Source: a virus (taxonomy: Duplodnaviria; Caudoviricetes). Taken from it: DNA of 64,000 nucleotides. Below, one piece after another: positions 27,904-41,604 of the stretch (position 1 is the stretch's first letter; every line of letters begins with the position of its first letter). Position numbers and translations under genes: made by a program. The notes below the pieces were generated by a model. That model saw only the letters and a list, made by a program, of their open reading frames with translations, had not been told where the DNA came from and searched no databases. Location of the stretch: IMG/VR virus record IMGVR_UViG_3300033412_000476, positions 1 to 64,000 of that record; one strand, 5' to 3'.

Positions 27904-27960
27904 GCTCGGGTTCCAGCCGAGCGTCGCACAACCAGACGTTGCCTCAACCGGGCATATTCT
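27904..27960 (-). promoter_or_regulatory. Degenerate promoter plus leader hairpin cassette
   Basis: AGAATA-N16-CGTCTGG; GCTCGG-CTGGAAC-CCGAGC. Confidence 0.6.
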
Positions 27961-28495
27961 TCAAGACCGGTCGCACGATGAAGCCGTACGCGTCGAGCGC
28001 TGCAGCTTCACTCGCGGTCACACGGAAGACTTCGCCTGCGCGCAGCTGGGCAACGATCCACATCGCGGGCTCAATGCCGAGCCCGCTGCAAACCCGCAGC
28101 AGTGTCGCGACGTAAGCTTCGTGTTGCTCGCGGTCGAGCGGCAGCGCGACGACCTCCCAAGTGCACTCGATTACCGGCGGGCGTTTCGCAAACCAGCGCC
28201 CGAGCTCCGCTGCACTCGGCTGCCTGGGATTTGTCGTGAGGGCGATGAGCCGCTCGCGGGCTTCCGCTTCTAGCGCGCGGTTCTTCTCGTCGAGCGCTTC
28301 TAGCAGCGCATCCGCGCACGCGACCGCGGTACGTTCAACGCTGTCGTCTGCTGAGCCCGTCGCGTGACCCAAGATGTATGGTTGCCGCACCGTCGGATCC
28401 TCGAGCAGTAGCTTGAAGATCTCGAGCGCGAAGCGTTCACGTGTTTCCATCAGAGCGCTACCTTCCTGGTTCCATGCGAGCATAGTAGTGGCCAT
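27944..28495 (-). CDS. hypothetical protein
   Basis: ORF track; start uncertain. Confidence 0.5.
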   Translation of the reverse strand: MATTMLAWNQEGSALMETRERFALEIFKLLLEDPTVRQPYILGHATGSADDSVERTAVACADALLEALDEKNRALEAEARERLIALTTNPRQPSAAELGRWFAKRPPVIECTWEVVALPLDREQHEAYVATLLRVCSGLGIEPAMWIVAQLRAGEVFRVTASEAAALDAYGFIVRPVLKNMPG

Positions 28496-28850
28496 CGGGG
28501 AGAATCGAGACCAGGCGAATCAGACATGCACGAGACAGGATGCGCGCGGTCCTGATCTGTTGACCTCGTACCGGCGCAGATGCTTTCGGATCAGCCGGCA
28601 ACGACTGAAGTAACGCCGTCTGTGCAGGCGTGAGCCTAGGCGCTGTACCGCGCGAACGCCGCGCGCTGTACTGCGGGCTTTGACCCCGCAGCTTGTTGGC
28701 GAGCGCGCGGGCTGCGCCGAGCGTCAAGCCCCCGCGGACGTGCAGTGCGCCGATGACGTCGTCGTGGCTCAGCGACTCGAGCGCGGCGAGTATCGCGCCA
28801 ACGTCCTTTCGATTCAGTGGGATCACTTCGTTGGGTGTTTGCGAGCTCAC
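28458..28850 (-). CDS. hypothetical protein
   Basis: GTG overlapping the helicase stop. Confidence 0.45.
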   Translation of the reverse strand: MSSQTPNEVIPLNRKDVGAILAALESLSHDDVIGALHVRGGLTLGAARALANKLRGQSPQYSARRSRGTAPRLTPAQTALLQSLPADPKASAPVRGQQIRTARILSRACLIRLVSILPDGHYYARMEPGR

Positions 28851-30400
28851 TTCACGTCCCCGTCGAGCCACACCAGCTCATGCTTGGCGCGCGTGATGGC
28901 GACGTAGCGGATGTTCTCTTCTTCGGTGCCTTCACGCCAGGTCGTGGTCTCGCCGCGGCTCTTGCAGAAGGTCGCCGAGAGCAGCCACACGCGGCCAGCC
29001 TCGAGCCCCTTGGCGCGGTGGACGGTCGACAGCATGATCACGCTGCTGACGTCGTCGCCGGTGAAGAGCGTGTCAAAGCGCGCGTACAGCTCCGCGAAGC
29101 TGTAGATGCCCTCGACCAAGGCCGTGATGACCGCGCGGTTGTCTCCTGCGATCTCGATGGCGGTCTCGCCGGTGCTCGGGTCGATCTCGCCGCGCTCGAC
29201 GCGCTTGTTGATGACTCGGATCTCAGCGTCGAGCTGTCGGTCGAGCTCCGCGAGCAACCCATCGATGTTGCGCACGCCCGAGCGCTCCACACTCTCGACC
29301 TGCTTGCGCAAGCCTTGGCTGAGGTCACGGCCGCGGATGCGCGCGGCCTTGCCGTTCTTGAGCAGCGTGAGCGCTGCAGGCACGAGCGGGGCGTTGGTAC
29401 GGCTGAGCACGAAATCGCCCGGACCAGCTTCGCGCACGAGCGTGTCGCGTACGTCGAGTGCGTGGCGCACGATGCCGACCGGCGCGGTCGCCGCTGCAAC
29501 GAAGTCGAGGACCAACTTCACAGCCTCGGCCACGACTGCTTGCGGGCAGCGATAGGTGGTCTTCAGGCCCAGCTCGACAGCTTGGAGCGAGCCCTTCATG
29601 CGATCGAGTGCGCTCGCGTCCGCCCCGCGCCAGCTGTAGAGACACTGCCTGTCGTCGCCGATCACGCACACTCGGCCCTCCGGCCGCGTCGCCTTGGTTG
29701 CCAGCTCGAGCTGTGCCGCGGACATGTCCTGCGCTTCGTCAACGCACACGAGGTCATAGCGGCCGAACACCATCCCGTGCACGAGCGGCAGGAAGATCAT
29801 GTCCGAGAAGTCGATCGTGTCGGTCCGGTCGGCGGCGATCTCGGCAGCATCGAGCGCCCACTGCGCGACTGCGCCGTCAGTCCAGCCCCGATCTTCGTCG
29901 AAGTCCTCGCTCGGCAGCAGGTGACCGTAATCGAACGCCATCTGCGTGACGGTGTCCCATGCGCCGTCGTCAGCGTACGCGCGGCCCTTGTCGGTGTCCC
30001 AGTACACCAGGTGTGGCTTGATCTCGCGGATCTTGGTGCACAGCTCGGCAACGCAGCGCAGGACCGACTGAGGGGCGTTCTTGGGCACTACGGCCTTGGC
30101 CAAGGACCACTTGCGGCGGTTGTCGACGTTGAGCTTGGGCCACGCGCGCCGCAGGTACGAGAACCCCAGGCCGTGCAGCGTCTTAGCCTCGGCGCGCGGG
30201 TTGGTCAGCCGCGACTGCAGCTCATCGGCGATGATCTTGTTGAACGCCGCGAGCAAGATCCGGCGCTCGGGCGCACGCGAAATCCCCTCGATGATCGTCG
30301 TCGTCTTGCCCGTGCCAGCGCGAGCGCGAATCACCAGGTTGCCCTTGCCCTCGGCAAACCAGCGGAAGATGTCGTTTTGCTCGGGGCTCCAAGTCTTCAC
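28847..30400 (-). CDS. UvrD/Rep-family SF1A helicase
   Basis: ARAGTGKTT, VDEAQD, GDDRQCLYSWRGA, STVHRAKGLEA, YVAITRAK; start moved to GTG 30400 after GAGGGAG. Confidence 0.9.
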   Translation of the reverse strand: MKTWSPEQNDIFRWFAEGKGNLVIRARAGTGKTTTIIEGISRAPERRILLAAFNKIIADELQSRLTNPRAEAKTLHGLGFSYLRRAWPKLNVDNRRKWSLAKAVVPKNAPQSVLRCVAELCTKIREIKPHLVYWDTDKGRAYADDGAWDTVTQMAFDYGHLLPSEDFDEDRGWTDGAVAQWALDAAEIAADRTDTIDFSDMIFLPLVHGMVFGRYDLVCVDEAQDMSAAQLELATKATRPEGRVCVIGDDRQCLYSWRGADASALDRMKGSLQAVELGLKTTYRCPQAVVAEAVKLVLDFVAAATAPVGIVRHALDVRDTLVREAGPGDFVLSRTNAPLVPAALTLLKNGKAARIRGRDLSQGLRKQVESVERSGVRNIDGLLAELDRQLDAEIRVINKRVERGEIDPSTGETAIEIAGDNRAVITALVEGIYSFAELYARFDTLFTGDDVSSVIMLSTVHRAKGLEAGRVWLLSATFCKSRGETTTWREGTEEENIRYVAITRAKHELVWLDGDVK

Positions 30401-30450
30401 GGCTGCATACTCCCTCTGTTCAGGCTGCGGTGCCTGTTGCGTTGCCCTTC

Positions 30451-30478
30451 TTAGACGAATCCTCGCCACGGCTATTCA
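30451..30478 (-). promoter_or_regulatory. ECF-like promoter
   Basis: TGAATA-N15-CGTCTAA. Confidence 0.8.
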
Positions 30479-30485
30479 CTCGCTT

Positions 30486-30716
30486 TCACGGAAGCAGACA
30501 GTAGCTTGCGCGGCCGACGGCGATCGCGAGCGTTGCACCGTAGAAGTCGCGGCCGTCATCGCCGACGCGCACGACCCACACCCATTCGAGCGCGACCCCG
30601 AGCGGTTCGAGCGCGACAGCCTTGTGCTGCTCTCGCGAGATCGAGACTGTGTGATACGCCTGCGCCAAGCGCTCGATCTCAGCCTGCACTTCGGCGGCGC
30701 GGTGCAGCGTCTTCAC
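30486..30716 (-). CDS. small hypothetical protein
   Basis: Coupled to the upstream ORF. Confidence 0.55.
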   Translation of the reverse strand: MKTLHRAAEVQAEIERLAQAYHTVSISREQHKAVALEPLGVALEWVWVVRVGDDGRDFYGATLAIAVGRASYCLLP

Positions 30717-31018
30717 GGCAACGCTCGGAAGGTCGACCCGACCAGTGGCACGGCGATGTGTTCGCCGCGTGACTCGAGTGACCAGTCCGGATAGAGCGCC
30801 ACGCAGCCGGGCTCGGGCTCGAACGCGACGCTACCGATTGCCGCCCCGCGCTCAGCTCGACGCTGCAGCGCGTCGATTCGAGCCTGCGCAATGTCGGCCC
30901 GCTTGCGCGGCGAAAGGTGCGCTGTGCTGTTACCGATCTCGCCGCCGCGCCCTTGGATCGGCCCGACCAGCACACGACCATCCGCCAACTTCACGCGAAA
31001 CCGCACTACGCCTTCCAT
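30713..31018 (-). CDS. small hypothetical protein
   Basis: AGGAGGA RBS, start MEGVVRF. Confidence 0.6.
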   Translation of the reverse strand: MEGVVRFRVKLADGRVLVGPIQGRGGEIGNSTAHLSPRKRADIAQARIDALQRRAERGAAIGSVAFEPEPGCVALYPDWSLESRGEHIAVPLVGSTFRALP

Positions 31019-31043
31019 TCCGATCCTCCTACAGCTCGCCCGC

Positions 31044-31071
31044 TTAGACGAAAACTGTTTTCGGCGATTCA
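31044..31071 (-). promoter_or_regulatory. ECF-like promoter
   Basis: TGAATC-N15-CGTCTAA; spacer holds GAAAACAGTTTTC inverted repeat. Confidence 0.8.
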
Positions 31072-31260
31072 ACGCTCCGCGGCGTCGACCTCCAAGATCG
31101 TGAAGACCACCGCGCGCAGCCGAGCGTATGTCAGCTCGTCGCCCGGCTTGGATGCACGCGCACCCATTCGGAAGAGCCGACCGAGCGCCATCCGCATCAA
31201 CACGGCGCGCTCGTCCTTGCTCAGCGAGGCGATCGCCTCCGCTTCTGCAGGTAGGCTCAT
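31069..31260 (-). CDS. small hypothetical protein
   Basis: Stop TGA is the -35 box of the next promoter. Confidence 0.55.
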   Translation of the reverse strand: MSLPAEAEAIASLSKDERAVLMRMALGRLFRMGARASKPGDELTYARLRAVVFTILEVDAAER

Positions 31261-31265
31261 GATCT

Positions 31266-31655
31266 TCAGGCCCCCCAGATCAAGCCGTCGTCACCCACAT
31301 ACAGGTGATACTCGTGGAACGCTTTGCATGCATCGGTGAGCGTTGTTGCGGCGGGCTCCGACCAATCGCCATCCCAGAACCCCGCGCCGTGGCCGTTGCG
31401 CGTCAGCCAAAAGTCGTGGCCGGCTTGCTCGTCCTCAGAGTGCTCGCTCACGCGGGCCCACTGACCGGACCACGTCGAGCGCTGCGCTTCGAAGAAGGCT
31501 TTGCAGTCCGCTTCGAGCTTCGCGCGAGTCTCGGGCGCGAGATCTTCCGGGCCGTAGTTGTCGTCGATCGGATCGCCGCCGTCGTCGCGACTCTCGTCGT
31601 TGCTCGACCACAGGGCGCACGTGATGTACGCCCGCGTGAAGTCCGCGAGGCTCAC
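31266..31655 (-). CDS. conserved phage early protein (GHDFWLTRNxHGAGFWD family)
   Basis: AYITCALWSS...AGHDFWLTRNGHGAGFWDGDW; function not known to me. Confidence 0.72.
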   Translation of the reverse strand: MSLADFTRAYITCALWSSNDESRDDGGDPIDDNYGPEDLAPETRAKLEADCKAFFEAQRSTWSGQWARVSEHSEDEQAGHDFWLTRNGHGAGFWDGDWSEPAATTLTDACKAFHEYHLYVGDDGLIWGA

Positions 31656-31885
31656 AACGACACCTCGCGGTCAAAGGTGACCTGCAGGTTGAACACGCCG
31701 TGCACGTCGTGCCGCAGGGGCACGAGCGCGTAGATCCGCTGCGCACGTAGCGCGAAGCTGCACCGGTGCACGACCATGTCCGGGCTGCGTCGGCAGCTCT
31801 TCAGCAGCCCTTGCGCCGCTGCGCGATCGATCGGCTTGCCGTTCCAGGGCAAGCCCGTGCCAAAGAGAACGTATTGATAGCCCAC
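31652..31885 (-). CDS. small hypothetical protein
   Basis: AGGAG plus CAAC-GTG after the hairpin. Confidence 0.55.
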   Translation of the reverse strand: MGYQYVLFGTGLPWNGKPIDRAAAQGLLKSCRRSPDMVVHRCSFALRAQRIYALVPLRHDVHGVFNLQVTFDREVSL

Positions 31886-31900
31886 GTTGCTTGTCTCCTG

Positions 31901-31955
31901 CCCCGGGTTCCAGCCGGGGTTGCATCTTAGACGTTGTCTGCTTGCTCTGCATTCA
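31901..31955 (-). promoter_or_regulatory. Promoter plus leader hairpin cassette
   Basis: TGAATG-N16-CGTCTAA; CCCCGG-CTGGAAC-CCGGGG. Confidence 0.8.
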
Positions 31956-32160
31956 TCCATTCGAGCAGCGAAACATGCCGATCGACGATCTTCACAGTGA
32001 AGGTGTGACCCGTCCGCGCAAGCGACACGCACAGCGCCGAGAAGTCCGTATCGGTGTGGTGCGCATGCACGTACGGCTCACCCTTCGCGATACGCGCCGA
32101 GCCAAGGCGTGCGTTGTGACCACAGCGCAAGCGCACCACCTCGACAACTACGGCGCTCAC
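31927..32160 (-). CDS. small hypothetical protein
   Basis: GTG coupled to upstream stop; its TAA is inside CGTCTAA. Confidence 0.5.
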   Translation of the reverse strand: MSAVVVEVVRLRCGHNARLGSARIAKGEPYVHAHHTDTDFSALCVSLARTGHTFTVKIVDRHVSLLEWMNAEQADNV

Positions 32161-32372
32161 GGTGCCTCGACTGCGCGCACGTCTGCGACGTCGTAGTTGA
32201 CCTCGCAGCCCGCGAAAACGCCGGAGTCGATCTTCAGGACCGCGAGCACCCCGCGGCCATAGTCGTGATACCGCACGAATGTGTAGCCTTTGAACCAGTC
32301 CGCGCAGCGGTAGGCCCACAGCGTGCGCACTTCGACCGGCGCACCGGGTTTCAGATCGAGTTGCGTGTTCAT
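32157..32372 (-). CDS. small hypothetical protein (SH3-like pattern)
   Basis: LKPGAPVEV...WFKG..FV; coupled. Confidence 0.5.
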   Translation of the reverse strand: MNTQLDLKPGAPVEVRTLWAYRCADWFKGYTFVRYHDYGRGVLAVLKIDSGVFAGCEVNYDVADVRAVEAP

Positions 32373-32599
32373 CGCGACACCGCGTCTGCAGGCACGTAGG
32401 CGTAGCGGTGTGCGAGGTCGTGGCGACCGAACGAGTCCGGGCCGGCGTTCCACTCAGGCAGGAACCGCTCGGGGTTCCTGACGGCATACAGCGGCTTGCC
32501 CATGCCGTCGGGGACGACGTCCAGCTCGGTCCCCGCGGGGACGTCGATCACCGTCGAGCGCGTGATCGTGAGCCGTAGTGCTCGGTTGGTGACTGGCAT
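32369..32599 (-). CDS. small hypothetical protein
   Basis: GAGGTAGG RBS. Confidence 0.55.
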   Translation of the reverse strand: MPVTNRALRLTITRSTVIDVPAGTELDVVPDGMGKPLYAVRNPERFLPEWNAGPDSFGRHDLAHRYAYVPADAVSR

Positions 32600-32603
32600 G
32601 TTC

Positions 32604-32882: not shown

Positions 32883-32886
32883 GGTG

Positions 32887-33102
32887 CTACCTCACGCCCG
32901 GCGGGAAGATCTCGGCGAACGCTTCCGCCTCGTCGTCGAAGTTGAAGTGACCCCATTCGCAGCGCGCTTTGCGGACAACCGCTGCGCGGTCAGCACCCTT
33001 GATCGTGCTGTACGGGCAGCGCGCAACCCAGGTGCCGTCAGGCGCTTGCGTCAAGCTGTAGTTGGTGCGGATGTACCGCTGCCGTTCGTTCGGCGTTGAC
33101 AC
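32887..33102 (-). CDS. small hypothetical protein
   Basis: GGAGG plus CAAC-GTG. Confidence 0.6.
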   Translation of the reverse strand: MSTPNERQRYIRTNYSLTQAPDGTWVARCPYSTIKGADRAAVVRKARCEWGHFNFDDEAEAFAEIFPPGVR

Positions 33103-33116
33103 GTTGCCTCCGTTCT

Positions 33117-33170
33117 CGCGGGTTCCGCCGCGTTGTGCTGATTAGACGTTGCTCGTGCTCGAGGGATTCA
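33117..33170 (-). promoter_or_regulatory. Promoter plus leader hairpin cassette
   Basis: TGAATC-N16-CGTCTAA; CGCGG-CGGAAC-CCGCG. Confidence 0.82.
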
Positions 33171-33513
33171 CCCGACCGGGGCAGAAATCGCCCCGCACGC
33201 ACGTCTGCGTGACTGCGGAGAGCACCGATCCACAGCGTGAGCACGCGCCGATCGTCGGCGCAGTGCGGCCCGACGCTGCGCTCGCGATCTTCGCAAGCAG
33301 TGCTCGCCCGGCTTCCGTTGCGGTCGCGTACGGATAGGCGACTGTCACCAGATCCTTGCGTGCCAGCTCATAGCAGGCTCCGCCGTTGGTTGCTTCGTGG
33401 CACCCATGCGGTCGAGCGGCCGCGAGTAGCGTGTCGTACAGGCGCCAACTGAGGGCCTTGCAGCCGTTGTCCCGGGCTGCTGTCCACGTGCGTTTGGCTT
33501 GGGCGCGGTTCAT
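33142..33513 (-). CDS. hypothetical protein, C-terminal CxxC..C..C
   Basis: Stop TAA inside CGTCTAA. Confidence 0.55.
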   Translation of the reverse strand: MNRAQAKRTWTAARDNGCKALSWRLYDTLLAAARPHGCHEATNGGACYELARKDLVTVAYPYATATEAGRALLAKIASAASGRTAPTIGACSRCGSVLSAVTQTCVRGDFCPGRVNPSSTSNV

Positions 33514-33767
33514 GGTTCTTCACCACAGCGGCGAAGCACGTCACAGTAGTAGGCGTCAAGCGTCCCGCAGTGGAGTCGACCCGACTCCATGTTCAGCAAA
33601 CCCCGCGCTGCGCGGCACAAGTCAGCCAGGTAGTCCGCGGCGTACTCGTCCGCAGCCCACTGCGCAGCGGCCGTAACGATCGCTCTGTGCAGCTGCACAT
33701 GTGCTCGCTCGGGACCGCGGGGTGACGCCATCGCGGCGTCGTGCCGAGTCTTCTCGTCCGTGCTCAC
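33510..33767 (-). CDS. small hypothetical protein
   Basis: GGAAGG plus CAAC-GTG. Confidence 0.6.
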   Translation of the reverse strand: MSTDEKTRHDAAMASPRGPERAHVQLHRAIVTAAAQWAADEYAADYLADLCRAARGLLNMESGRLHCGTLDAYYCDVLRRCGEEP

Positions 33768-33783
33768 GTTGACCTTCCGTTCT

Positions 33784-33839
33784 GCGCGGGTTTCCGCCGC
33801 GCGTGCCTGGTTAGACGAAAACTGTTTGCGAGGTATTCA
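33784..33839 (-). promoter_or_regulatory. Promoter plus leader hairpin cassette
   Basis: TGAATA-N16-CGTCTAA; GCGCGG-CGGAAAC-CCGCGC. Confidence 0.85.
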
Positions 33840-34130: not shown

Positions 34131-34471
34131 GTCGCCACCTCCCCGATCACTTCGCCCGAGATACCATCGAAAAGCAGGAACGACCGCGCGGTATTGCCCA
34201 GCTTTTCAGCCGCCCACACACGCGCTTCCGCGATGCTGGCGAAGCAGCCCCGGGTCAAGGTCGCGAACGGTCCCGTTGACTCTGTGGGGTGCCATTCGGT
34301 GCGACCCTCGATCGTGAACGGAATGCAAACCGTCCAGTAGCGGTCGAACACTAGCGAGCCGTCGACGTCGACCTTTCGGCCAACCACTGACGCCAGATCA
34401 CCCATAGCCACAAGCACCCTCCGTCGGCCTGCCATCTTCAGTGCGCGTAGGCCAGATCGCGCAGACCCCAA
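34127..34471 (-). CDS. small hypothetical protein (start uncertain)
   Basis: Stop coupled to the next ATG. Confidence 0.5.
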   Translation of the reverse strand: MGSARSGLRALKMAGRRRVLVAMGDLASVVGRKVDVDGSLVFDRYWTVCIPFTIEGRTEWHPTESTGPFATLTRGCFASIAEARVWAAEKLGNTARSFLLFDGISGEVIGEVAT

Positions 34472-34486
34472 GTCGGGGTTTCGGCT

Positions 34487-34732
34487 TCAGTCGATCGTCA
34501 GATCGTACAGGTGCTGGACGCCACCGTCGGAGTAGTCGACGCCCCACAGCAAGCGCGCCGCACCGGGGTCACGCTTGGGGCTGAGCCCTACCGCGATCGT
34601 CTCGCCCGACTCGCAGCTGACGTCGGAAGCCAGCTCGCGCGCTGCAGCTTCGATGGCCTGCGGGTTCGCTTCGCCATGCAGCTGCCGAGCATGGCAGTCG
34701 CCAAACCGATCCTTGATCACCACACAACCCAT
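34487..34732 (-). CDS. small hypothetical protein
   Basis: AAAGGAG RBS after the hairpin. Confidence 0.6.
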   Translation of the reverse strand: MGCVVIKDRFGDCHARQLHGEANPQAIEAAARELASDVSCESGETIAVGLSPKRDPGAARLLWGVDYSDGGVQHLYDLTID

Positions 34733-34748: not shown

Positions 34749-34799
34749 GCGCGGGTTCCGCCGCGCGCTTGTTAGACGGGCTTGCGCCCGAGAGATTCA
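34749..34799 (-). promoter_or_regulatory. Promoter plus leader hairpin cassette
   Basis: TGAATC-N15-CGTCTAA; GCGCGG-CGGAAC-CCGCGC. Confidence 0.85.
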
Positions 34800-35153
34800 C
34801 TTCGCCGCGTACTTCGCCCAACGGCGAGCGCGCTTGATGCGGTACTGCGCGCGGACATCGGCGATCGCCTCGTCACGCGTAGCGCCGAGCCCGGTCGCAA
34901 CGAGGTTTCCGCCGCGGTACAGCTCAGCGTGCCGGTAGCCCCCGGGCATACCCGGGGTGTAGGGGTCCTCGCGCACCTGAAAGCGCTGGCCAAAGCCGTC
35001 CAGCTCGCGAAGCTTCGCCTTGTCTTCGCTGTAGGTCGCCGCCGCGCGCAACCAGCGGACCGTCGCAGAGGTGCCGCACAGCGCGGTCACTTCGCCGATG
35101 TCGTGCTCCGCACTACCGGGCCGACCCGACGCAACCATGGACCCTACACGCAT
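34797..35153 (-). CDS. first leftward early-type gene, hypothetical
   Basis: AGGAGG RBS; stop TGA is the next -35 box. Confidence 0.6.
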   Translation of the reverse strand: MRVGSMVASGRPGSAEHDIGEVTALCGTSATVRWLRAAATYSEDKAKLRELDGFGQRFQVREDPYTPGMPGGYRHAELYRGGNLVATGLGATRDEAIADVRAQYRIKRARRWAKYAAK

Positions 35154-35170
35154 TCGCCGTACCTCCTGCC

Positions 35171-35224
35171 GGGGGTTTCCGCCCCGTTCGCCCATTTAGA
35201 CGGGGGCCCCCGGGGGCGTATTCA
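35171..35224 (-). promoter_or_regulatory. Leftward central promoter plus hairpin
   Basis: TGAATA-N16-CGTCTAA; GGGG-CGGAAAC-CCCC. Confidence 0.85.
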
Positions 35225-35229
35225 AAGGC

Positions 35230-35291
35230 TGTCAAAAAATAGCTCTTTTTTGACAAAAAGCCTGCGTATTACTATAGTAATACACGCTTTT
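35230..35291. promoter_or_regulatory. AT-rich divergence centre: 10-6-10 inverted repeat, 18-bp palindrome and rightward sigma70 promoter
   Basis: TGTCAAAAAA-TAGCTC-TTTTTTGACA (35230-35255); GTATTACTATAGTAATAC (35266-35283); TTGACA-N17-TATAGT (35250-35278). Confidence 0.75.
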
Positions 35292-35303
35292 CTTTGGGCA
35301 TGG

Positions 35304-35356
35304 TGAATACGGCCCGAAAACCGCCGTCTAATAGGGCGAACGCGGCGGAAACCGCG
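35304..35356 (+). promoter_or_regulatory. Rightward central promoter plus hairpin
   Basis: TGAATA-N15-CGTCTAA; CGCGG-CGGAAA-CCGCG. Confidence 0.85.
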
Positions 35357-35396: not shown

Positions 35397-35894
35397 ATGG
35401 CACTGCATTTCAAGGGTGAACGGGGCGTCCAGTACGCCGGGCGCGTGCTGCGCGACCGCTACGTGAGTGACGTTCGGATCATGAGTGACGTTTGGGCTGG
35501 ACAGTACATGCTCGATTGCGTCGAGCCCGATGGATCGATCACGTCGATCGCGTACATGACGGAAGGCTTTGGCGGGAACCCGGGGCTGGAGTCGTGGGAG
35601 ATCGACGCCACCCCGGAAGCGATCGCGCAGCACGAAGCTTGGCTCGCGGCGCGCGAGGCTGAGCGCGTCGAGCTGGAAGCGCGCCGCGCTCGCGCGATCG
35701 CCGCAGCTGAGGCTAAGGCGGTTCGCAAGGGCCGGCGCTGCAAGGTTGTGCGCGGTCGCAAGGTGCCCAAGGGCACGGAAGGCGTGTGCATCTGGGTTGG
35801 CGACGGTCACTACGGCGAGCGTTGCGGCATCAAGGACGACTCCGGAACCGTCCACTGGACCGCGAGCAAGAACGTCGAAGCGATCGCCCCGTGA
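35397..35894 (+). CDS. first rightward early-type gene, hypothetical with SH3/KOW-like C-terminus
   Basis: AAGGAGG RBS; KGRRCKVVRGRKVPKGTEG...GERCGI. Confidence 0.65.
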   Translation: MALHFKGERGVQYAGRVLRDRYVSDVRIMSDVWAGQYMLDCVEPDGSITSIAYMTEGFGGNPGLESWEIDATPEAIAQHEAWLAAREAERVELEARRARAIAAAEAKAVRKGRRCKVVRGRKVPKGTEGVCIWVGDGHYGERCGIKDDSGTVHWTASKNVEAIAP

Positions 35895-35906
35895 TCGCTA
35901 GCGCGT

Positions 35907-35992: not shown

Positions 35993-36007
35993 TAGGAGGC
36001 TAGGAAC

Positions 36008-36349
36008 GTGGATCAACATGATCTCCCGCGGAGCTTTGGCCGACGTACGGCCGGTGTAGCTAACGCACGTGCAGCAGCACAACGGCTGATCGCCGATGCG
36101 ACCGCGCTGGACGGCGGTGCGATCGACCGCGCGAAGTATCTGCTAGAGCTTCGCCCCGCAACGCTGGCCAAAGCCTGCGGGATCACTACGGCTGATCTGC
36201 AAGCACTGCTCTGCGAAGCCCGTGAGCAGTACCACACCGCTGAGCACGCGCGACCTGTGCGCGCCAGTGTCAGCATGATCCGTCGGCGTGTCGAGTTTCG
36301 CGTAGCGCTCGCGCTCGCGAAAGAGATCGTAGTGAATACCGGCAGCTGA
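36008..36349 (+). CDS. hypothetical protein, possible HTH
   Basis: PATLAKACGITTADL; RBS plus AAC-GTG. Confidence 0.55.
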   Translation: MDQHDLPRSFGRRTAGVANARAAAQRLIADATALDGGAIDRAKYLLELRPATLAKACGITTADLQALLCEAREQYHTAEHARPVRASVSMIRRRVEFRVALALAKEIVVNTGS

Positions 36350-36361
36350 AGCGCCGTCTAA
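36333..36361 (+). promoter_or_regulatory. ECF-like promoter (no hairpin)
   Basis: TGAATA-N16-CGTCTAA. Confidence 0.82.
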
Positions 36362-36388
36362 GACAGCAAACCCGAGAGAAGGAAGAAC

Positions 36389-36775
36389 ATGGCAAAGTCT
36401 ACTGTGGACACAGTCCGCGGCGTCCCGTTCGCGGACATGGGCGAAGAAGAGCTTGCGGCGTACGCACACGGCGCTGCGCAGTCGAGCGATGAAGGCTATA
36501 ACCAAGCCGTCGCACGCGCGGCACGCAAGGAAATCGCCAAGCGCGCCAAGCGCGCCAACGATCTGACCGAGTACGCGGTCGACGGCTTCAACGGTGCTGA
36601 GTGCAGATTGCTCTACTCGTCGGCGGCATGGTTTGCGTTCCAGCTCGGGGTTTACCTCAAAGCGACCGGGCGCTCGACCCCGCGCGACGTTCGCATGGGT
36701 CGTGGGTACTCGGTGCGCTGCGCCGACATGCTCTTCAAGCACGTGGACGGCGCGACGTTCGAACGCGTGCAGTGA
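36389..36775 (+). CDS. hypothetical protein
   Basis: Stop TGA is the next -35 box. Confidence 0.6.
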   Translation: MAKSTVDTVRGVPFADMGEEELAAYAHGAAQSSDEGYNQAVARAARKEIAKRAKRANDLTEYAVDGFNGAECRLLYSSAAWFAFQLGVYLKATGRSTPRDVRMGRGYSVRCADMLFKHVDGATFERVQ

Positions 36776-36828
36776 ATACCGGCGGCTGAAGTTTCGTCTA
36801 ACCACAAACCGCGCGGCGGAACCCGCGC
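36773..36828 (+). promoter_or_regulatory. Promoter plus leader hairpin cassette
   Basis: TGAATA-N16-CGTCTAA; GCGCGG-CGGAAC-CCGCGC; AGGAGAGG. Confidence 0.87.
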
Positions 36829-36844
36829 ATCGTTAGGAGAGGTC

Positions 36845-37222
36845 ATGGAGCAACTCAGCTTGGGGATGCTGACGTGCGACGCGCACGAGGCATCGGCACC
36901 TTACGAGTCGGATCGTTGGGCGAGCACCGATCGCGGCTGGCTGTACGACCCTGCGCACCCTAATGCGGACTACCACGGCGGCAACCTGCCGATCGGCAAC
37001 TATCTCGATTACGGGCCGTGCGGAGAGCACTACCGCAACAACCCCGACGGCGCCGTGCACGTGTGCTTCACGCCGTGGTGGATCGACCCCGTGACGCGGT
37101 CGATCTGCCGCGGAGTGACAGAGAGCACGCACGTGCACACCCCTGCAGAGGCGCAAGCCTGGCTCGCCGAGCAGTACCGCCTGTGGACGGCGCGGCGTGC
37201 CGCAGACAAGGTGACGCCGTGA
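36845..37222 (+). CDS. hypothetical protein
   Basis: Strong RBS; coupled to the RadC-like gene. Confidence 0.6.
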   Translation: MEQLSLGMLTCDAHEASAPYESDRWASTDRGWLYDPAHPNADYHGGNLPIGNYLDYGPCGEHYRNNPDGAVHVCFTPWWIDPVTRSICRGVTESTHVHTPAEAQAWLAEQYRLWTARRAADKVTP

Positions 37223-37689
37223 AAAACTACTTGGACAAACTGATTGTACGGCGCGAGCGGAGCCTCGTGTGCGAGTCGGACGGGCCGCTCGGCCGCAAGA
37301 TCACGCACAGCGGCGACATCGCGAAGATCGCGATCCCGCTGATTGGGCCTGAGGCTGTCGAAGTGTTCGTGATCTTCGCGCTGACCGCGCGACACAAGGT
37401 CACGGGCTACCACGAAGTGGCGCGTGGCTCGCTAAGCAGCTGCGCAGTCAGCCCCGGGGACGTCGCGCGCGTCGCGTTGATCGCGGGCACGCCGGCCTTC
37501 ATCGTGGCCCACAACCACCCTAGCGGCGAGCCTGAGCCCAGCCCCGAGGACATCGCGCTCACGCGGAAGATCAAGCAGGCTTTCGACCTGCTCGGACTGA
37601 CCCTGCTCGATCACGTGATCGTCACGAGCGAGCACCACAAGAGCTTGCTCGATATGGGCCTGCTCGACGTTTCCGTGAAACCGGCGTGA
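37219..37689 (+). CDS. RadC-like JAB domain protein
   Basis: EVFVIF...EVARGSL...HNHPSGEPEPSPED...LLDHVIV; stop TGA is a -35 box. Confidence 0.88.
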   Translation: MKNYLDKLIVRRERSLVCESDGPLGRKITHSGDIAKIAIPLIGPEAVEVFVIFALTARHKVTGYHEVARGSLSSCAVSPGDVARVALIAGTPAFIVAHNHPSGEPEPSPEDIALTRKIKQAFDLLGLTLLDHVIVTSEHHKSLLDMGLLDVSVKPA

Positions 37690-37749
37690 ATACCGGCAGC
37701 TGAAGTTTCGTCTAAGAGGCACAAGCAAGCGGCGCGGCTGGACCCGCGC
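37687..37749 (+). promoter_or_regulatory. Promoter plus leader hairpin cassette
   Basis: TGAATA-N16-CGTCTAA; GCGCGG-CTGGAC-CCGCGC. Confidence 0.85.
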
Positions 37750-37766
37750 AAGGATGGGAGAGCAAC

Positions 37767-38339
37767 ATGGCAACGGACATCATGGCTTGGTGGAAGCTGC
37801 ACTTGCCGCCGCACCTGCGCGAGACGGCGCCCGAGCGGCCCGAGGGAACCGACCTCGCGATCTGGCGCGAGGAGATCGACGGCAATCCGTTCGCGTACGG
37901 CTTCCAAGGCAAAGCGCGTCAGCCCGTGTGGGCCTATCGCTTCAAGGACGCCGCGCACCGTGAGCGGTTCATCGGTGAGAAGATCGCCGCACGTAGGGCG
38001 CACTTCGGTCGCAAGGCTGAGCGCGCAGCGGAACGCAAGCAGGCGACGCACAGCCTCACGGTGGGTGACATCTTGTCCTCGAGCTGGGGCTACGACCAGA
38101 CCAACGTCGATTTCTACGAGGTGGTCGCCGTCCCTAGCTCCAAGTCGGTAATCATCCGGAAGATCGCCAGTCAGGCGGCCGCTCGCGACCGCGTCGCGCC
38201 GCAGCCCGGGGTGTTCATCGAGGGCCCCATGCTCAAGCGCGTGACCGCCCACGGCTCCGTGAAGATCGAGGATTACGCCTGGGCCAGCAAGTGGTCCGGA
38301 GCTCCGATGTACCAGACCGACATCCACGAGGGTCACTGA
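37767..38339 (+). CDS. conserved phage hypothetical protein
   Basis: VGDIL.SSWGYDQTNVDFYEVV pattern. Confidence 0.68.
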   Translation: MATDIMAWWKLHLPPHLRETAPERPEGTDLAIWREEIDGNPFAYGFQGKARQPVWAYRFKDAAHRERFIGEKIAARRAHFGRKAERAAERKQATHSLTVGDILSSSWGYDQTNVDFYEVVAVPSSKSVIIRKIASQAAARDRVAPQPGVFIEGPMLKRVTAHGSVKIEDYAWASKWSGAPMYQTDIHEGH

Positions 38340-38354
38340 GCTTTGCGCCTGCGT

Positions 38355-38407
38355 TGAATACCTGAAAACTGTTTTCGTCTAAGCTGACGGCTCGGCTGGA
38401 ACCCGAG
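38355..38407 (+). promoter_or_regulatory. Promoter plus leader hairpin cassette
   Basis: TGAATA-N15-CGTCTAA (spacer GAAAACTGTTTTC); CTCGG-CTGGAAC-CCGAG. Confidence 0.85.
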
Positions 38408-38424
38408 CAGAAGGGAGAATCAAC

Positions 38425-38787
38425 GTGCAACTCGACATCGAATACGTGCTCGCGGGCGAGCCGGAAGACTGCGACCCAGCAGATCACTTCGACGACAGCG
38501 ACGAAGGCGACGCCGACGTCACATGGGTTCATGAGCAACTCAGCGCCGGCAACCAGTGGGCCTGGTTTCGCGCGGTCGTCACCGCCCGCGTTACACTCGA
38601 CGGCCAAACGTTCGAAGGCGTCGACTCGCTCGGGTGCTGCTCGTACAAGTCGGAGGACGACTTTCGACAGTGCCAGTACTTCGACGACATGAAGACTGAG
38701 GCGCGCTACGCCTTGCTCGCGTCACTGCACACCGCCGTCCGTAGGGGCGAGCTTGCCGCGGTCGCGCTGACCCAGGTGACGCCATGA
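38425..38787 (+). CDS. conserved phage hypothetical protein (acidic)
   Basis: G..WAWF...V......G.DSLG.CSY pattern; GGGAG plus CAAC-GTG. Confidence 0.65.
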   Translation: MQLDIEYVLAGEPEDCDPADHFDDSDEGDADVTWVHEQLSAGNQWAWFRAVVTARVTLDGQTFEGVDSLGCCSYKSEDDFRQCQYFDDMKTEARYALLASLHTAVRRGELAAVALTQVTP

Positions 38788-39032
38788 TCTACGGACGATT
38801 TGGCGACGCAGTCACGATCGTGCGCATGGGCACGCTCGACGACGTCAAGACGATCGACGGCCGCAAGCCCGACAAGCAGGACCGCGAGGCTGTCGAGATC
38901 GGTAGCTACGTCGTAGTCCGCCAGGACAACGGCAAAGAGCGGCTCTACCACCTTGCGTTCCTGCGCGCCGACGGCGGCAGCAAAGAGATCAACGAGGCAA
39001 TCGCCGCCTGCGACCCCTGGAGCCAGCCATGA
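38784..39032 (+). CDS. small hypothetical protein
   Basis: Coupled. Confidence 0.58.
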   Translation: MIYGRFGDAVTIVRMGTLDDVKTIDGRKPDKQDREAVEIGSYVVVRQDNGKERLYHLAFLRADGGSKEINEAIAACDPWSQP

Positions 39033-39244
39033 AGGGTCTACGCCGGCTGAAGCAGCCGCAGATCGAGTACATCGGCCGCGGGCCTCGTGTGGTCGCGCTG
39101 AGCGCAGCGAGCGCGCTCTACTTCTTCGGCTTCGACAGCGAAAACTATGAAGCTGTCGACGTCGGTCCGCCGGCTGATCCGCACCGCTGGAAGCCGGAAG
39201 CTCGCGTGTACGAGTGCCGCAAGAAGCAATCGAAGATGAACTGA
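39029..39244 (+). CDS. small hypothetical protein
   Basis: Coupled. Confidence 0.5.
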   Translation: MKGLRRLKQPQIEYIGRGPRVVALSAASALYFFGFDSENYEAVDVGPPADPHRWKPEARVYECRKKQSKMN

Positions 39245-39246
39245 GC

Positions 39247-39265
39247 CTCGAGCTGGAACCTCGAG
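39247..39265 (+). promoter_or_regulatory. Leader hairpin without recognisable promoter
   Basis: CTCGAG-CTGGAAC-CTCGAG, then GGGAG plus AAC-GTG. Confidence 0.75.
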
Positions 39266-39286
39266 CATCAACAGGGAGAAACGAAC

Positions 39287-39556
39287 GTGAGTATGAACAG
39301 ACCCAGCGTCACCGTACGTAACAACAACGTCCCCGGTGCGGCGGCTGACGGTGAGACGATCGTCGAGTTTAGCTTTCAGGACAGCACTGGCGGGCTGATC
39401 TCGTTCAGCATCGACGCGGAAGGCAACCCGCGCGTGGAGCTCTACCGCTGCGACGAAGGCATCCGCGTAGGACTCGACAATCTGACTGACCACAAAGGCG
39501 GCAAGCTGATCGCCGCGAGCGACATGTCGCTAGCCCGGATCGGAATCACCAAGTGA
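39287..39556 (+). CDS. small hypothetical protein
   Basis: RBS; coupled downstream. Confidence 0.58.
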   Translation: MSMNRPSVTVRNNNVPGAAADGETIVEFSFQDSTGGLISFSIDAEGNPRVELYRCDEGIRVGLDNLTDHKGGKLIAASDMSLARIGITK

Positions 39557-39828
39557 GCACCCACGATCCCGAGCTGCTGTTCATCGCGCACTACCCGCCG
39601 GGCCCGGTGCGCACGTTCGCCGCGCGGCTGCTCAACGAGGTGGGCTGCGCGGTGCAGACCGAAGACTACATCGCAGGCGTCGCCGAGTGCTGCGGCTGCA
39701 GCACCGCCGACCGCGAGCGCGTGATCACGCGCGCCATCGATTGCGGCTTTCTGCGCGCTGACGCGCTGCAGTGGGCGCCCCGAGGCAAACCCCGCTACAT
39801 CCCTTGCCTGTTCGCGGTGCAGCCATGA
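39553..39828 (+). CDS. small hypothetical protein
   Basis: Coupled. Confidence 0.5.
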   Translation: MSTHDPELLFIAHYPPGPVRTFAARLLNEVGCAVQTEDYIAGVAECCGCSTADRERVITRAIDCGFLRADALQWAPRGKPRYIPCLFAVQP

Positions 39829-40166
39829 GTTTCACCATGAAGGCGATCGCCATCGAGATGCGCAAGCGCGTCGCCACGCGGCGCAAGCCTACACTGGACG
39901 CGCTACGCGCGATGTCGCTACAGCAGATCGATCAGCTTCTCACGGAGTGCGCGGTCAAGGTTGTTCGCCTGCATACGTCGAAGTCGACGCCGCTGCGTTC
40001 GTACGCCTGCAAGCTCCGGCGGTTCGACGGCTCAACAGTCGAGCGCTTCGCAACGACAGCCGGACAGGCACTTCTCGACGCGCTCGACAGCGCAACAGAC
40101 GCCGGCTGGTTCGGCGATCACTACGAGCAACGAAACCAACTACAGGAGACAGCGCAAGATGAGTGA
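39825..40166 (+). CDS. hypothetical protein
   Basis: Coupled. Confidence 0.5.
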   Translation: MSFTMKAIAIEMRKRVATRRKPTLDALRAMSLQQIDQLLTECAVKVVRLHTSKSTPLRSYACKLRRFDGSTVERFATTAGQALLDALDSATDAGWFGDHYEQRNQLQETAQDE

Positions 40167-40374
40167 GAGAACCGACAGAGCCCGCGTGGTTGCGGGCGCA
40201 ATCAAAGCCAAGGTCGCTGCCTACGAGAACGGCGAGTGCGACAACGGCGCGCTCGACGTTGCCACCAACGCGATCGCCATGCTCGGCCAGCTGGCCGACG
40301 CGGTGCTCACGCTCGCCGAAGAGCACGATCATCTCGAGCGCACGCTCGCCTCACGCACGGATCACCTCGCGTGA
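40159..40374 (+). CDS. small helical hypothetical protein
   Basis: AGGAG RBS. Confidence 0.5.
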   Translation: MSERTDRARVVAGAIKAKVAAYENGECDNGALDVATNAIAMLGQLADAVLTLAEEHDHLERTLASRTDHLA

Positions 40375-40571
40375 CCAAACCCCTGAACGAGATACTTCAA
40401 ACGAAGATCCTCGAGCAACGCTCCGGCGCGCTGCTGCGCGCGTACGAGCTGATGCAGGAGACTGCGAAGCAGATGCCTCCGGCTGCGCGCAAGCTGGCCG
40501 ATCGCGCGCTCCTCGAGCTCGAGGCGTTCGGCCAGAGTCTCGAGCGTGAGTACCGCTCAAGGGGACTGTAG
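40371..40571 (+). CDS. small helical hypothetical protein
   Basis: GTG coupled to upstream stop. Confidence 0.5.
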   Translation: MTKPLNEILQTKILEQRSGALLRAYELMQETAKQMPPAARKLADRALLELEAFGQSLEREYRSRGL

Positions 40572-40573
40572 CG

Positions 40574-40822
40574 ATGACGCTCGAGGAGATCATCGCAGCG
40601 ATCGGCCGGCACATGTTCTCGCGAACGCAGCTGAACCGCGAAGTCTCCGCACGCGTGCACCTACACAACGACGTGCTCATCGGCAGTCTGTACCGCGACG
40701 TGCTCACTGACGAGATCACGCTGCTAGTTCAACTCGGCCAAGCTTGGTGCTACGGCTGGCAGCCCGAGGAAGCCCGCGCAACGTACTACCTGTCGCGGTT
40801 CACCAGGAGCCTGCGGCCATGA
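40574..40822 (+). CDS. small hypothetical protein
   Basis: In operon. Confidence 0.5.
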   Translation: MTLEEIIAAIGRHMFSRTQLNREVSARVHLHNDVLIGSLYRDVLTDEITLLVQLGQAWCYGWQPEEARATYYLSRFTRSLRP

Positions 40823-41211
40823 AGAACAGAAACCGTTTCAGGACCATCCACCGGAAAGCAACGATGCCCGCGCCCAAGAACGTGATCTTCGCCCCAACGA
40901 GCGTGCACATCTATCCGGACAGTCAACGGGGGCAGGTTGCCTTCGAGCTGCGCAACAAGGCTAATAAGCCGCTGATGACGCTGCTACTCGAACCTGAGGG
41001 CGCCGCGAATCTGTTTGCGAAGCTCGGAGAGGCCCTCGTCGCGATCACCGGTACCGCGGACCACTGGCGTCGCGGCGCTGTCGAGCCGCAGAAGACGCAA
41101 GCGCGCTGCACATGCCCTTGCCCTGACGATCCCGACAAGCCGTCGACCGATCCGACCGCGCACTACATCGGTTGTCCGTTTCGCGCAGAGCTCGAGGCGC
41201 AGACCGAGTGA
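40819..41211 (+). CDS. hypothetical protein, C-terminal CxC...H..CP
   Basis: AGGAG RBS; coupled. Confidence 0.55.
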   Translation: MKNRNRFRTIHRKATMPAPKNVIFAPTSVHIYPDSQRGQVAFELRNKANKPLMTLLLEPEGAANLFAKLGEALVAITGTADHWRRGAVEPQKTQARCTCPCPDDPDKPSTDPTAHYIGCPFRAELEAQTE

Positions 41212-41522
41212 AGATCAGAGTCAAGACGCCGCGACGGCTGCCGCCCAAGGCAGAAGCGATCGATTACCCAGAGATCATTTCGCAGATCAATCGGGAGCTG
41301 GAGCACCACGGCCTGAGCGCGCTCGACTTGCTCAGCAGCTTCGCGCTGCATCTGTTGGGCGTCGCGCTGGACGTCACCCCGCAGCACCCCGTCAGCCAAC
41401 AAAAGGTCTATAGAGACCTGCACTTAGAGATCAGCCGCATGGTCGGAGAGGCGCTCGACCGCAAGCAGCGTCTACTCGGATCTCCGCTGGGCAACCAGTC
41501 GCTACCGAAGGAGCGAGACTAG
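41208..41522 (+). CDS. hypothetical protein
   Basis: GTG coupled. Confidence 0.5.
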   Translation: MKIRVKTPRRLPPKAEAIDYPEIISQINRELEHHGLSALDLLSSFALHLLGVALDVTPQHPVSQQKVYRDLHLEISRMVGEALDRKQRLLGSPLGNQSLPKERD

Positions 41523-41550
41523 GAGCACGCGCGCGAAAATAGATTTCGGC

Positions 41551-41604
41551 TGAATCTTGTCGTAACGTCGGCGTCGCAGTTCAACCCTCGGCTGGAACCC
41601 GAGG
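41551..41604 (+). promoter_or_regulatory. Degenerate promoter plus leader hairpin cassette
   Basis: TGAATC-N15-CGTCGCA; CCTCGG-CTGGAAC-CCGAGG; AAGGAG. Confidence 0.7.

Follow-up and report, generated by a model that had tools for sequence, protein, structure and literature searches.

ECF-type promoter motifs, conserved-loop leader hairpins and a putative viral sigma factor in an uncultured virus with an 87-kb genome record

The DNA considered here is the window formed by the first 64 kb of the 87,267-b single-contig virus record IMGVR_UViG_3300033412_000476 from IMG/VR, and its subject is an array of short, bipartite promoter-like motifs, most of them followed by a small hairpin, that radiates from one centre near 35.25 kb. 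A gene call based on codon usage gives two blocks of genes, a leftward one that extends from 35.15 kb to about 21.8 kb and a rightward one that extends from 35.4 kb to about 45.6 kb. The genes in these two arms are mostly small and of unknown function, the exceptions being those for a DNA helicase, RadC, a RecA-like protein, a DNA methylase and an integrase-like protein. Copies of the motif divide both blocks into about 14 units. The gaps that carry them measure 39-85 nt between genes on the same strand and 243 nt at the divergent centre, and the end of the upstream gene is often overlapped.

The most repeated 7-mer in the gaps upstream of genes is CGTCTAA, and a TGAAT box precedes it. Twelve strong copies of this pair, two degenerate copies and one weak copy were located at the following positions, where N16 and N17 give the length of the spacer between TGAAT and CGTCTAA and ORF stands for open reading frame:

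9593 to 9621, plus strand: weak copy, GTGAATAGG-N-CGTCAAG, 15.2 bits, the best site below threshold and a candidate feedback promoter
27932 to 27960, minus strand: degenerate promoter motif AGAAT-N17-CGTCTGG, before a 50-aa ORF at 27735-27887
30451 to 30478, minus strand: promoter motif TGAAT-N16-CGTCTAA, before the 517-aa DNA helicase gene 28847-30400, with no leader hairpin
31044 to 31071, minus strand: promoter motif (N16), before gene 30713-31018, with no hairpin and with the palindrome GAAAAC-A-GTTTTC in its spacer
31927 to 31955, minus strand: promoter motif (N17), before gene 31652-31885
33142 to 33170, minus strand: promoter motif (N17), before gene 32887-33102
33811 to 33839, minus strand: promoter motif (N17), before ORF 33510-33767
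34772 to 34799, minus strand: promoter motif (N16), before gene 34487-34732
35196 to 35224, minus strand: promoter motif (N17), the innermost leftward copy, before gene 34797-35153
35304 to 35331, plus strand: promoter motif (N16), the innermost rightward copy, before gene 35397-35894, in tandem with and downstream of a sigma70-like promoter
36333 to 36361, plus strand: promoter motif (N17), before gene 36389-36775, with no hairpin
36773 to 36801, plus strand: promoter motif (N17), before gene 36845-37222 and the RadC gene
37687 to 37715, plus strand: promoter motif (N17), before gene 37767-38339
38355 to 38382, plus strand: promoter motif (N16), before gene 38425-38787, with the palindrome GAAAAC-T-GTTTTC in its spacer
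41551 to 41578, plus strand: degenerate promoter motif TGAAT-N16-CGTCGCA, before the RecA-like gene 41626-42417

The first-pass annotation of this DNA had described a dispersed promoter class with twelve exact copies of CGTCTAA, and a search of the window recovered every one of them on the strand and at the coordinate given there. Chance expectation was estimated from dinucleotide-preserving shuffles of the window, which held a mean of 3.5 and a maximum of 8 copies of the 7-mer. All twelve are preceded by TGAAT, and the combined pattern TGAAT-N16/17-CGTCTAA did not occur once in 100 shuffles. The spacer is N16 at five sites and N17 at seven, so that the 15-16 nt reported earlier holds when the count starts from the hexamer TGAATA and becomes 16-17 nt when it starts from TGAAT. 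Taken alone, TGAAT is found only 57 times on the two strands of this genome, whose GC content is 65%. The thirteenth CGTCTAA of the record, at 70455 on the minus strand, lacks a TGAAT partner. When the whole record was scanned on both strands with a position-weight matrix, the twelve strong sites stood apart at 25-38 bits, and the next best sites scored 15.2 and 13.7.

The arrangement of the copies is as regular as their sequence. All seven on the minus strand lie to the left of 35.25 kb and all five on the plus strand to the right, so the claim that they point away from this centre is upheld. Each of the twelve strong sites is oriented with the next gene and none is antisense to it. Between CGTCTAA and the start codon there are 25-65 nt, and a ribosome-binding site (RBS) of the GGAG/GGAA type is present at every strong site, as had been predicted; the start context CAAC-GTG/ATG is seen at 6 of the 12 strong sites and at both degenerate ones. 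The two degenerate copies are real, in that each retains CGTC and has after it the leader hairpin that is seen at the strong sites. Indeed, CGTC is kept in both of them and in the weak 9593 site, and the full CGTCTAA is invariant in the twelve. The other gaps upstream of genes yielded no further promoter-like motif that is repeated.

The spacers between the boxes are more varied. Those at 36333, 36773 and 37687 are nearly identical, and those at 31044, 33811 and 38355 have AAAC-N-GTTTTCGTCTAA in common; such sub-families suggest that cassettes have been copied. Inverted repeats are mildly enriched in the spacers, the mean best stem being 3.83 as against 2.91 in shuffles (P ~0.0005, for copies that are not independent of one another). 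As a separate observation, the 13-bp palindrome GAAAAC-N-GTTTTC abuts the -10 box in the spacers at 31050-31062 and 38364-38376; there is a third full copy at 7689-7701, inside the DNA polymerase gene, and a half-copy at 33819.

The TGA of TGAAT doubles as the stop codon that ends the upstream gene at 5 of the 12 sites, among them the copy at 31044..31071. The idea that the stop codons within TGAAT and CGTCTAA are a special signal was rejected, since an AT-rich box is simply the first stop to be met in the upstream frame. Such stops are unremarkable because the genome has 65% GC, and about one in three would be expected. We regard the overlap of the promoter motifs with upstream gene ends as compaction, not as a signal.

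The layout of the motif is that of promoters read by extracytoplasmic function (ECF) sigma factors: two boxes, a 16-17 bp spacer and, at 12 of 12 sites, a -10 element with a CGT(C) core. The AAC motif common to many ECF -35 elements (GGAAC/TGAAAC) is not found, and the -35 box here, TGAAT(A), fits the ECF26 variant GGAATA. Comparison with published ECF consensus sequences, which the first-pass annotation had proposed, gave matches to the ECF26 and Neisseria sigma-E forms. The promoters of the Sinorhizobium meliloti ECF26 sigmas RpoE1/3/4/6, which were mapped by rapid amplification of 5' cDNA ends (5'-RACE) or by RNA-seq, carry the -35 box GGAATA and the -10 box CGTCT, and one of them, GCGAATA-N-GCGTCTAATC, contains CGTCTAA (PMC6180224). 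For Neisseria sigma-E the -10 consensus is CGTCTAAH, with the transcription start 6 nt downstream (PMC2893595). The viral sites resemble both in the GAATA of the -35 box, the spacer of about 16-17 bp and the CGTCT(AA) of the -10 box. They differ from ECF26 promoters in that the viral -35 begins with T or G followed by TGAAT, not with GGGAAT, and from both systems in that those are bacterial stress regulons with dedicated anti-sigma factors, whereas the array here is viral.

The bipartite motif, its spacer, the CGTC core, the position before genes and the consistent orientation all support the view that the 12 strong sites are a dispersed, strand-consistent, non-sigma70 promoter class of the ECF type, as had been suggested from the sequence at first pass. 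The same sites could in principle be weak sigma70-type promoters, with (T/G)TGAAT at -35, a gap of 18-19 bp and TCTAA(G/C/T) at -10, that need a viral activator whose site would be the conserved CG and the spacer repeats. TTGAAT agrees with TTGACA at 4 of 6 positions and TCTAAT with TATAAT at 5 of 6, and the mild enrichment of spacer inverted repeats is in keeping with an activator site. That said, the motif makes a poor sigma70 promoter: two critical -10 positions are wrong, A2 being C and T6 mostly G or C, and the hexamer spacing of 18-19 bp exceeds the optimum. A sigma70 scan of the record detected 0 of the 12 motif sites, the invariant CGTC is a hallmark of ECF -10 elements, and the spacers differ between copies and so offer no common operator. 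We consider an activated sigma70 promoter highly improbable.

Sites of a related kind were noticed elsewhere. In four IMG/VR loci of about 40% GC (L053, L069, L078 and L083) there are paired (A/T)TGAATAAA-N-CCGTCTAA sites about 390 nt apart, and in these unrelated low-GC viral contigs each site stands directly before an RBS and an ATG. They look like ECF-type promoters of a different, Firmicutes-like system.

The second component of the array is a leader hairpin, which forms part of most cassettes and was absent from the first-pass annotation, even though the outer limits of the region described there, 27904 and 41604, are the outer ends of the two hairpins that follow the degenerate promoter copies. 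It is present after 9 of the 12 strong promoter motifs, after both degenerate ones and in one gap without a promoter motif (39247). The copies in leader position and one further copy inside a gene are:

27904 to 27922, minus strand: hairpin with a 6-bp stem and loop CTGGAAC, in the leader of the degenerate promoter motif at 27932
31833 to 31855, minus strand: extra hairpin with an 8-bp stem and loop CTGGAAC, located within the coding sequence of gene 31652-31885, about 30 nt in
31901 to 31919, minus strand: leader hairpin, 6-bp stem, loop CTGGAAC
33117 to 33132, minus strand: leader hairpin, 5-bp stem, loop CGGAAC
33784 to 33802, minus strand: leader hairpin, 6-bp stem, loop CGGAAAC
34749 to 34766, minus strand: leader hairpin, 6-bp stem, loop CGGAAC
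35170 to 35186, minus strand: leader hairpin, 5-bp stem, loop CGGAAAC
35341 to 35356, plus strand: leader hairpin, 5-bp stem, loop CGGAAA, followed by a second, unrelated 7-bp hairpin
36811 to 36828, plus strand: leader hairpin, 6-bp stem, loop CGGAAC
37732 to 37749, plus strand: leader hairpin, 6-bp stem, loop CTGGAC
38390 to 38408, plus strand: leader hairpin, 6-bp stem, loop CTGGAAC
39247 to 39265, plus strand: hairpin, 6-bp stem, loop CTGGAAC, in a 48-nt gap without the promoter motif, before the gene that starts at 39293
41586 to 41604, plus strand: hairpin with a 6-bp stem and loop CTGGAAC, in the leader of the degenerate promoter motif at 41551

The 12 hairpins in leader position are all in sense orientation within the stretch from 27.9 to 41.6 kb and have GC-rich stems of 5-6 bp. 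Seven distinct stems occur among them; they differ solely by two-sided changes, which fall at 5 of 6 positions, and the GGA of the loop is invariant in 12 of 12. A formal test of covariation was made on eight sequences, the seven leader copies with 7-nt loops and the copy at 31833 within a gene: pairing holds in 97.9% of cells, compensatory changes are seen at all six pairs, and the score of 0.94 compares with 0.26 in shuffles, none of 500 being as high, for copies that had been found by requiring at least 4 flanking pairs. The leader hairpin is the predicted minimum-energy fold in 12 of 12 cases. Its placement is also narrow. From CGTCTAA to the hairpin start is 5-9 nt in 8 of 9, and from the hairpin end to the start codon 14-17 nt in 9 of 12; the hairpin begins at or within about 4 nt of the expected mRNA 5' end, and the GGAG/GGAA RBS follows within a few nt on its 3' side. 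No matching family for the hairpin was found in Rfam, and a terminator scan reported none of the leader hairpins on the transcribed strand, its single overlapping hit (36829-36810) being antisense. The loop GGAAC was also considered as a -35 box and rejected, as it stands at no constant distance from any CGT and would place the RBS in the spacer.

A motif and a hairpin repeated together before small genes might be mainly a recombination module or mobile cassette, like the promoter-early stem-loops (PeSLs) of T4-type phages, in which case the identity of the copies would stem from recent copying and the loop would be conserved by shared descent only. The spacer sub-families (36333/36773/37687 and 31044/33811/38355) are what copying would leave, the units separate small ORFan genes, upstream stop codons form the cassette edges at 5 of 12 sites, and PeSL cassettes can drive shuffling (PMC2839356). 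Yet most spacers are unrelated and the boxes invariant, which points to selection on the boxes themselves, and the stems vary by compensatory changes with the loop GGA kept throughout. Such a module is, moreover, compatible with a promoter function and is not a true alternative to it. That the units are mainly of this kind seems to us unlikely.

What the hairpin does is a further question. Most likely it is a stabiliser of the mRNA 5' end that also offers its loop to an RNA-binding regulator beside the RBS. One candidate partner is a host protein of the CsrA/RsmA type, for which the hairpin would be a binding site that gates translation or lets the leaders soak the regulator up. The GGA in a 6-7 nt loop, with a second GGA in the RBS a few nt after it, recalls the dual sites of the glgC leader and their bridging range of 10-63 nt (PMC7652899). 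The loops, of the form C(U)GGAA(A)C, lack ACA...GGA...GU, however, and do not agree with the consensus RUACARGGAUGU; the stems have 5-6 GC-rich pairs, as against mostly 4 or fewer in high-affinity CsrA hairpins (PMC7652899); the virus encodes no CsrA; and any RBS contains GGA. A CsrA-type site is thus, in our estimate, very unlikely.

One other RNA element was noted in this region, in the 81-nt gap between two leftward genes in the unit of promoter 34772. A match to Hammerhead_II (RF02276) covers 34423-34486 on the minus strand at 31.4 bits, below the gathering threshold of 37 (E=0.005 on 16 kb). It spans the full length of the model with the core intact (CGAAAC, the cleavage triplet GUC and CUGAAGA), and one stem has several non-canonical pairs.

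A candidate for the factor that reads the array is encoded within the same record, which contains a single sigma gene and no T7-type polymerase:

10651 to 11163, plus strand: gene for a 170-aa, ECF-like two-domain sigma factor

At 170 aa the protein has the ECF architecture of sigma2 and sigma4 only (about 170-200 aa), and it falls under the cut-offs of the curated families (Pfam Sigma70_r2 and Sigma70_r4_2, and TIGR02937). TIGR02937, the sigma70-ECF family, aligns over positions 3-164 of 165 with E=2e-8 and 34 bits, where the cut-off is 42.9; Sigma70_r4_2 scores 25.3-25.6 bits on the protein against a cut-off of 25.7, and 27.2 bits, above it, in a genome search. An exhaustive search gave 61 homologues, mostly of about 170 aa. 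Among 21 of these, Sigma70_r4 matches 21 and Sigma70_r2 matches 8, and a profile built from the 21 matches the solved structures of ECF SigE/RpoE and WhiG over both domains. The AlphaFold model (mean confidence, pLDDT, 88.8) has two helical domains and a disordered linker, and Foldseek ranked sigma factors first, most of them ECF (Mycobacterium tuberculosis SigE/H/L, E. coli sigma-E, AlgU and SigW). The sigma match in PHROG has only E=1.8e-6, with no close similarity to phage sigmas, and the Atlas neighbours are viral or from soil phyla. Because profile matches, modelled fold and Foldseek ranking agree, the protein is taken to be a divergent two-domain sigma factor that would work like an ECF sigma, albeit one under the curated thresholds.

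The sigma gene belongs to a group that encodes, in order, a lipoprotein-like protein, a ribbon-helix-helix (RHH)-like protein (10346-10645), the sigma factor and a small putative membrane protein. Many ECF26 loci likewise have a lipoprotein-like gene upstream of the sigma gene and a small membrane protein gene downstream. The last gene of the group, 11138-11422, overlaps the end of the sigma gene, and its 94-aa product appears by eye to be a two-helix membrane protein; no anti-sigma domain was found in it, nor any Pfam match. The weak motif copy at 9593..9621 is located in the 40-nt gap that heads the group, two genes upstream of sigma.

Immediately before the weak motif copy is a 109-aa ORF (9266-9595, plus strand) with a weak match to the Acb2/Tad1 hairpin domain (E=1e-4, below the cut-off). 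Acb2/Tad1 is a family of anti-defence sponge proteins. The gene before this ORF, at 8271-9269 on the plus strand, encodes a ThyX-type thymidylate synthase.

Candidate sites for the host sigma70 polymerase are few. Only one sigma70-like site in the 87 kb agrees with the consensus at 10 or more of 12 positions, and it lies between the two innermost motif copies; five intergenic sites in the record reach at least 9 of 12, including this one and a second that stands before the RHH-like gene, which immediately precedes sigma. The features concerned are:

10307 to 10336, plus strand: sigma70-like site TTGACG-18-TAGTAT, 9 of 12, 9 nt before the GTG of the RHH-like gene 10346-10645
35250 to 35278, plus strand: sigma70-like promoter TTGACA-17-TATAGT, 11 of 12, the only strong one in the record
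35266 to 35283, no strand: perfect 18-bp palindrome GTATTACTATAGTAATAC over the -10 box of the sigma70-like promoter, a candidate operator

The divergence centre is AT-rich (35225-35300), and in it an 11-bp inverted repeat, TTGTCAAAAAA-N6-TTTTTTGACAA, overlaps the sigma70-like -35 box. This repeat and the 18-bp palindrome are candidate operators, perhaps for the RHH-like protein encoded at 10346-10645.

Two other short motifs were seen outside the array. Beyond the window, at 70062-70091 and 70447-70476 on the minus strand, TTGACCAAAC-N-AAAGGATACT contains a sigma70-like TTGACC-18-GATACT (9 of 12); the two copies precede neighbouring minus-strand genes, and the second holds the genome's thirteenth CGTCTAA in its spacer. 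Within the window, 17803-21788 on the plus strand is occupied by four consecutive genes of similar size (306-335 aa), possibly paralogous. The 9-mer CAGCTGAAC occurs shortly before the RBS of two of these four, and again before a gene at 84415; it could be another, weaker regulatory motif.

These elements combine into a mechanism that we consider probable, namely a viral-sigma regulon of standard promoter-hairpin-RBS cassettes, set off in a cascade from host sigma70 to viral sigma. We infer the promoter status of the sites, the sigma factor that would read them, the timing and the role of the hairpin as follows. The 12 strong sites, the 2 degenerate ones and perhaps the weak 9593 site would be promoters of the ECF (group 4 sigma) type, read by the host RNA polymerase core together with the viral 170-aa sigma, whose sigma4 domain would contact (G/T)TGAATAC and whose sigma2 domain would contact CGTCTAA. 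Transcripts would start about 6-7 nt after CGTCTAA. In most cassettes this would leave 0-4 nt between the 5' end and the hairpin and 2-5 nt between the hairpin and the RBS, and the hairpin would there protect the mRNA 5' end and present its loop to an RNA-binding regulator of translation. Host sigma70 would first fire the rightward promoter at 35250 and the weaker 10307 site before the RHH-like/sigma pair. Next, the viral sigma would switch on both arms (about 21.8-45.6 kb), and the weak 9593 copy may let it boost its own gene group. The order from host sigma70 to sigma to arms is proposed because it fits the sites at 35250 and 10307 and the weak copy that heads the sigma group.

Several points weigh against this mechanism. 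The link between sigma and promoters is based on one genome, the sigma gene is 25 kb from the regulon, and the weak 9593 site has 15 bits only and was singled out post hoc. No sigma70-like promoter stands in the left arm, and the 10307 site matches at only 9 of 12 positions. The viral sigma has no Pfam Sigma70_r2 match and scores under the TIGR02937 cut-off. Relatives in IMG/VR, with helicases 38-42% and DNA polymerases 26-50% identical, lack the motif in the helicase loci examined, and no sigma was found in the five IMG/VR relative records searched. As for the hairpin, its folding energies are no better than those of shuffles (z -0.9 to +0.6), three strong promoters are without it, one copy stands without a promoter and one is inside a gene. 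A purely 5'-terminal role is therefore not the whole story, given these promoter-less and in-gene copies.

A more elaborate reading is a two-layer private system, in which the viral sigma transcribes and a dedicated viral or host RNA-binding factor reads the GGA(A) loop, set at a constant distance ahead of the RBS, and in this way times or gates the translation of every cassette, internal cistrons included. To our minds such an elaboration is distinctly unlikely.

Because the motif is so close to cellular ECF promoters, a host sigma could also read the sites. A host ECF sigma, such as an envelope-stress sigma released on virus entry, is a serious rival, albeit an unlikely one; in that case the real early genes would be those of the arms, and the viral sigma would act on a different set of promoters or merely reinforce the host sigma. 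The motif is nearly identical to the mapped ECF26 promoters and to the Neisseria sigma-E -10 element CGTCTAAH, and similar TGAATAAA-N-CCGTCTAA pairs stand before genes in unrelated viral contigs of low GC. The arms contain small ORFan genes, a class that is usually the first to be expressed, the left arm is without a sigma70-like promoter, and the sigma gene is distant, within the replication block. On the other hand, the virus has an ECF-like sigma of its own, and the search of the gene-upstream gaps revealed no further repeated promoter-like motif that it could read; the best weak copy of the motif stands at the head of the sigma gene group, an arrangement shared with self-regulated ECF operons; and dependence on a stress sigma that is normally sequestered would be risky for a virus.

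Relatives of the virus were sought in several collections. Megablast of 10 kb against a phage collection gave no match, and tblastn of the DNA polymerase against phages gave no hit above about 26% identity. Neither the viral sigma nor its orthologues P0122 and P0131 turned up in IMG/VR, P0123 did not turn up in genome contigs, and a metagenome scan with P0009 returned intein-like matches only. A DNA-polymerase alignment run against genome contigs gave only a match to the uracil-DNA glycosylase domain in a Sphingomonadales metagenome-assembled genome. When IMG/VR was scanned for the promoter together with GGAAC, 63 loci were returned, none of them relatives, and in the low-GC contigs with paired sites GGAAC is the RBS. 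The alignment of sigma homologues is too variable for pattern scans, and no tRNA genes that might hint at a host were found in the record. One NCBI contig (89,071 b) does encode a sigma orthologue (41% identical) along with a DNA polymerase, the orthologue P0131 is on a JGI contig of about 86 kb, and the orthologue P0189 is on an ENA contig.

The DNA polymerase I gene at 5140-8109 on the plus strand carries an inserted family-4 uracil-DNA glycosylase domain (PF03167 + PF00476), and over 120 metagenomic homologues of the protein were found, many of them encoded on contigs of 76-89 kb. These finds suggest a widespread group of uncultured viruses with genomes of about 87 kb, and since so many DNA-polymerase contigs are of 76-89 kb, the record may be near-complete despite a CheckV estimate of 66%.

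The array would provide a ready transcription map of an otherwise unannotated 87-kb virus, with about 14 units in two arms around one centre, and with it a testable cascade from sigma70 to a viral sigma. It also offers a compact and probably orthogonal sigma/promoter pair with 12 natural promoter variants, and a short, covarying leader hairpin with a conserved loop as a candidate site for an RNA-binding partner. The conserved-loop hairpin is the most original part of the system.

Two published phage systems and one bacterial one invite comparison. Coliphage phiEco32 relies on sigma70 for its early genes and on its own distant sigma, gp36, for the middle and late ones, and the gp36 promoters consist of a single -10-like element, AATGTA, centred at -11.5 (PMC12276001). 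The present virus likewise encodes one small and very divergent protein of the sigma70 family, which would redirect the host core polymerase to a private motif, and it has sigma70-like sites at 35250 and 10307 that may be the first to be read. Its promoter differs from that of phiEco32 in being bipartite, with classical ECF spacing and a CGTC core.

The leaders can be compared with 5' stabiliser hairpins and with the dual-site glgC leader bound by CsrA (PMC7652899), since the hairpin is at or near the expected 5' end and immediately ahead of the RBS, and a GGA is found both in the loop, in 12 of 12 hairpins, and in the RBS. They differ from CsrA leaders in a loop that departs from the consensus obtained by SELEX (systematic ligand evolution through exponential enrichment), in longer stems rather than short ones, and in that one copy is internal to an operon and one lies within a gene.

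The PeSLs of T4-type phages combine sigma70-like promoters with terminator stem-loops (PMC2839356, PMC4122927). Like them, the units described here join a short promoter to a stem-loop and recur in front of numerous small ORFan genes within a plastic part of the genome. Unlike them, these units have an ECF-like promoter, none of the 12 sites passing the scan for a strong sigma70-like promoter, and a stem-loop that is downstream in the leader, has a conserved loop and no U-run, and is not a terminator. All told, the array is a new example of a known phage strategy, for which phiEco32 and the PeSLs are the published precedents.

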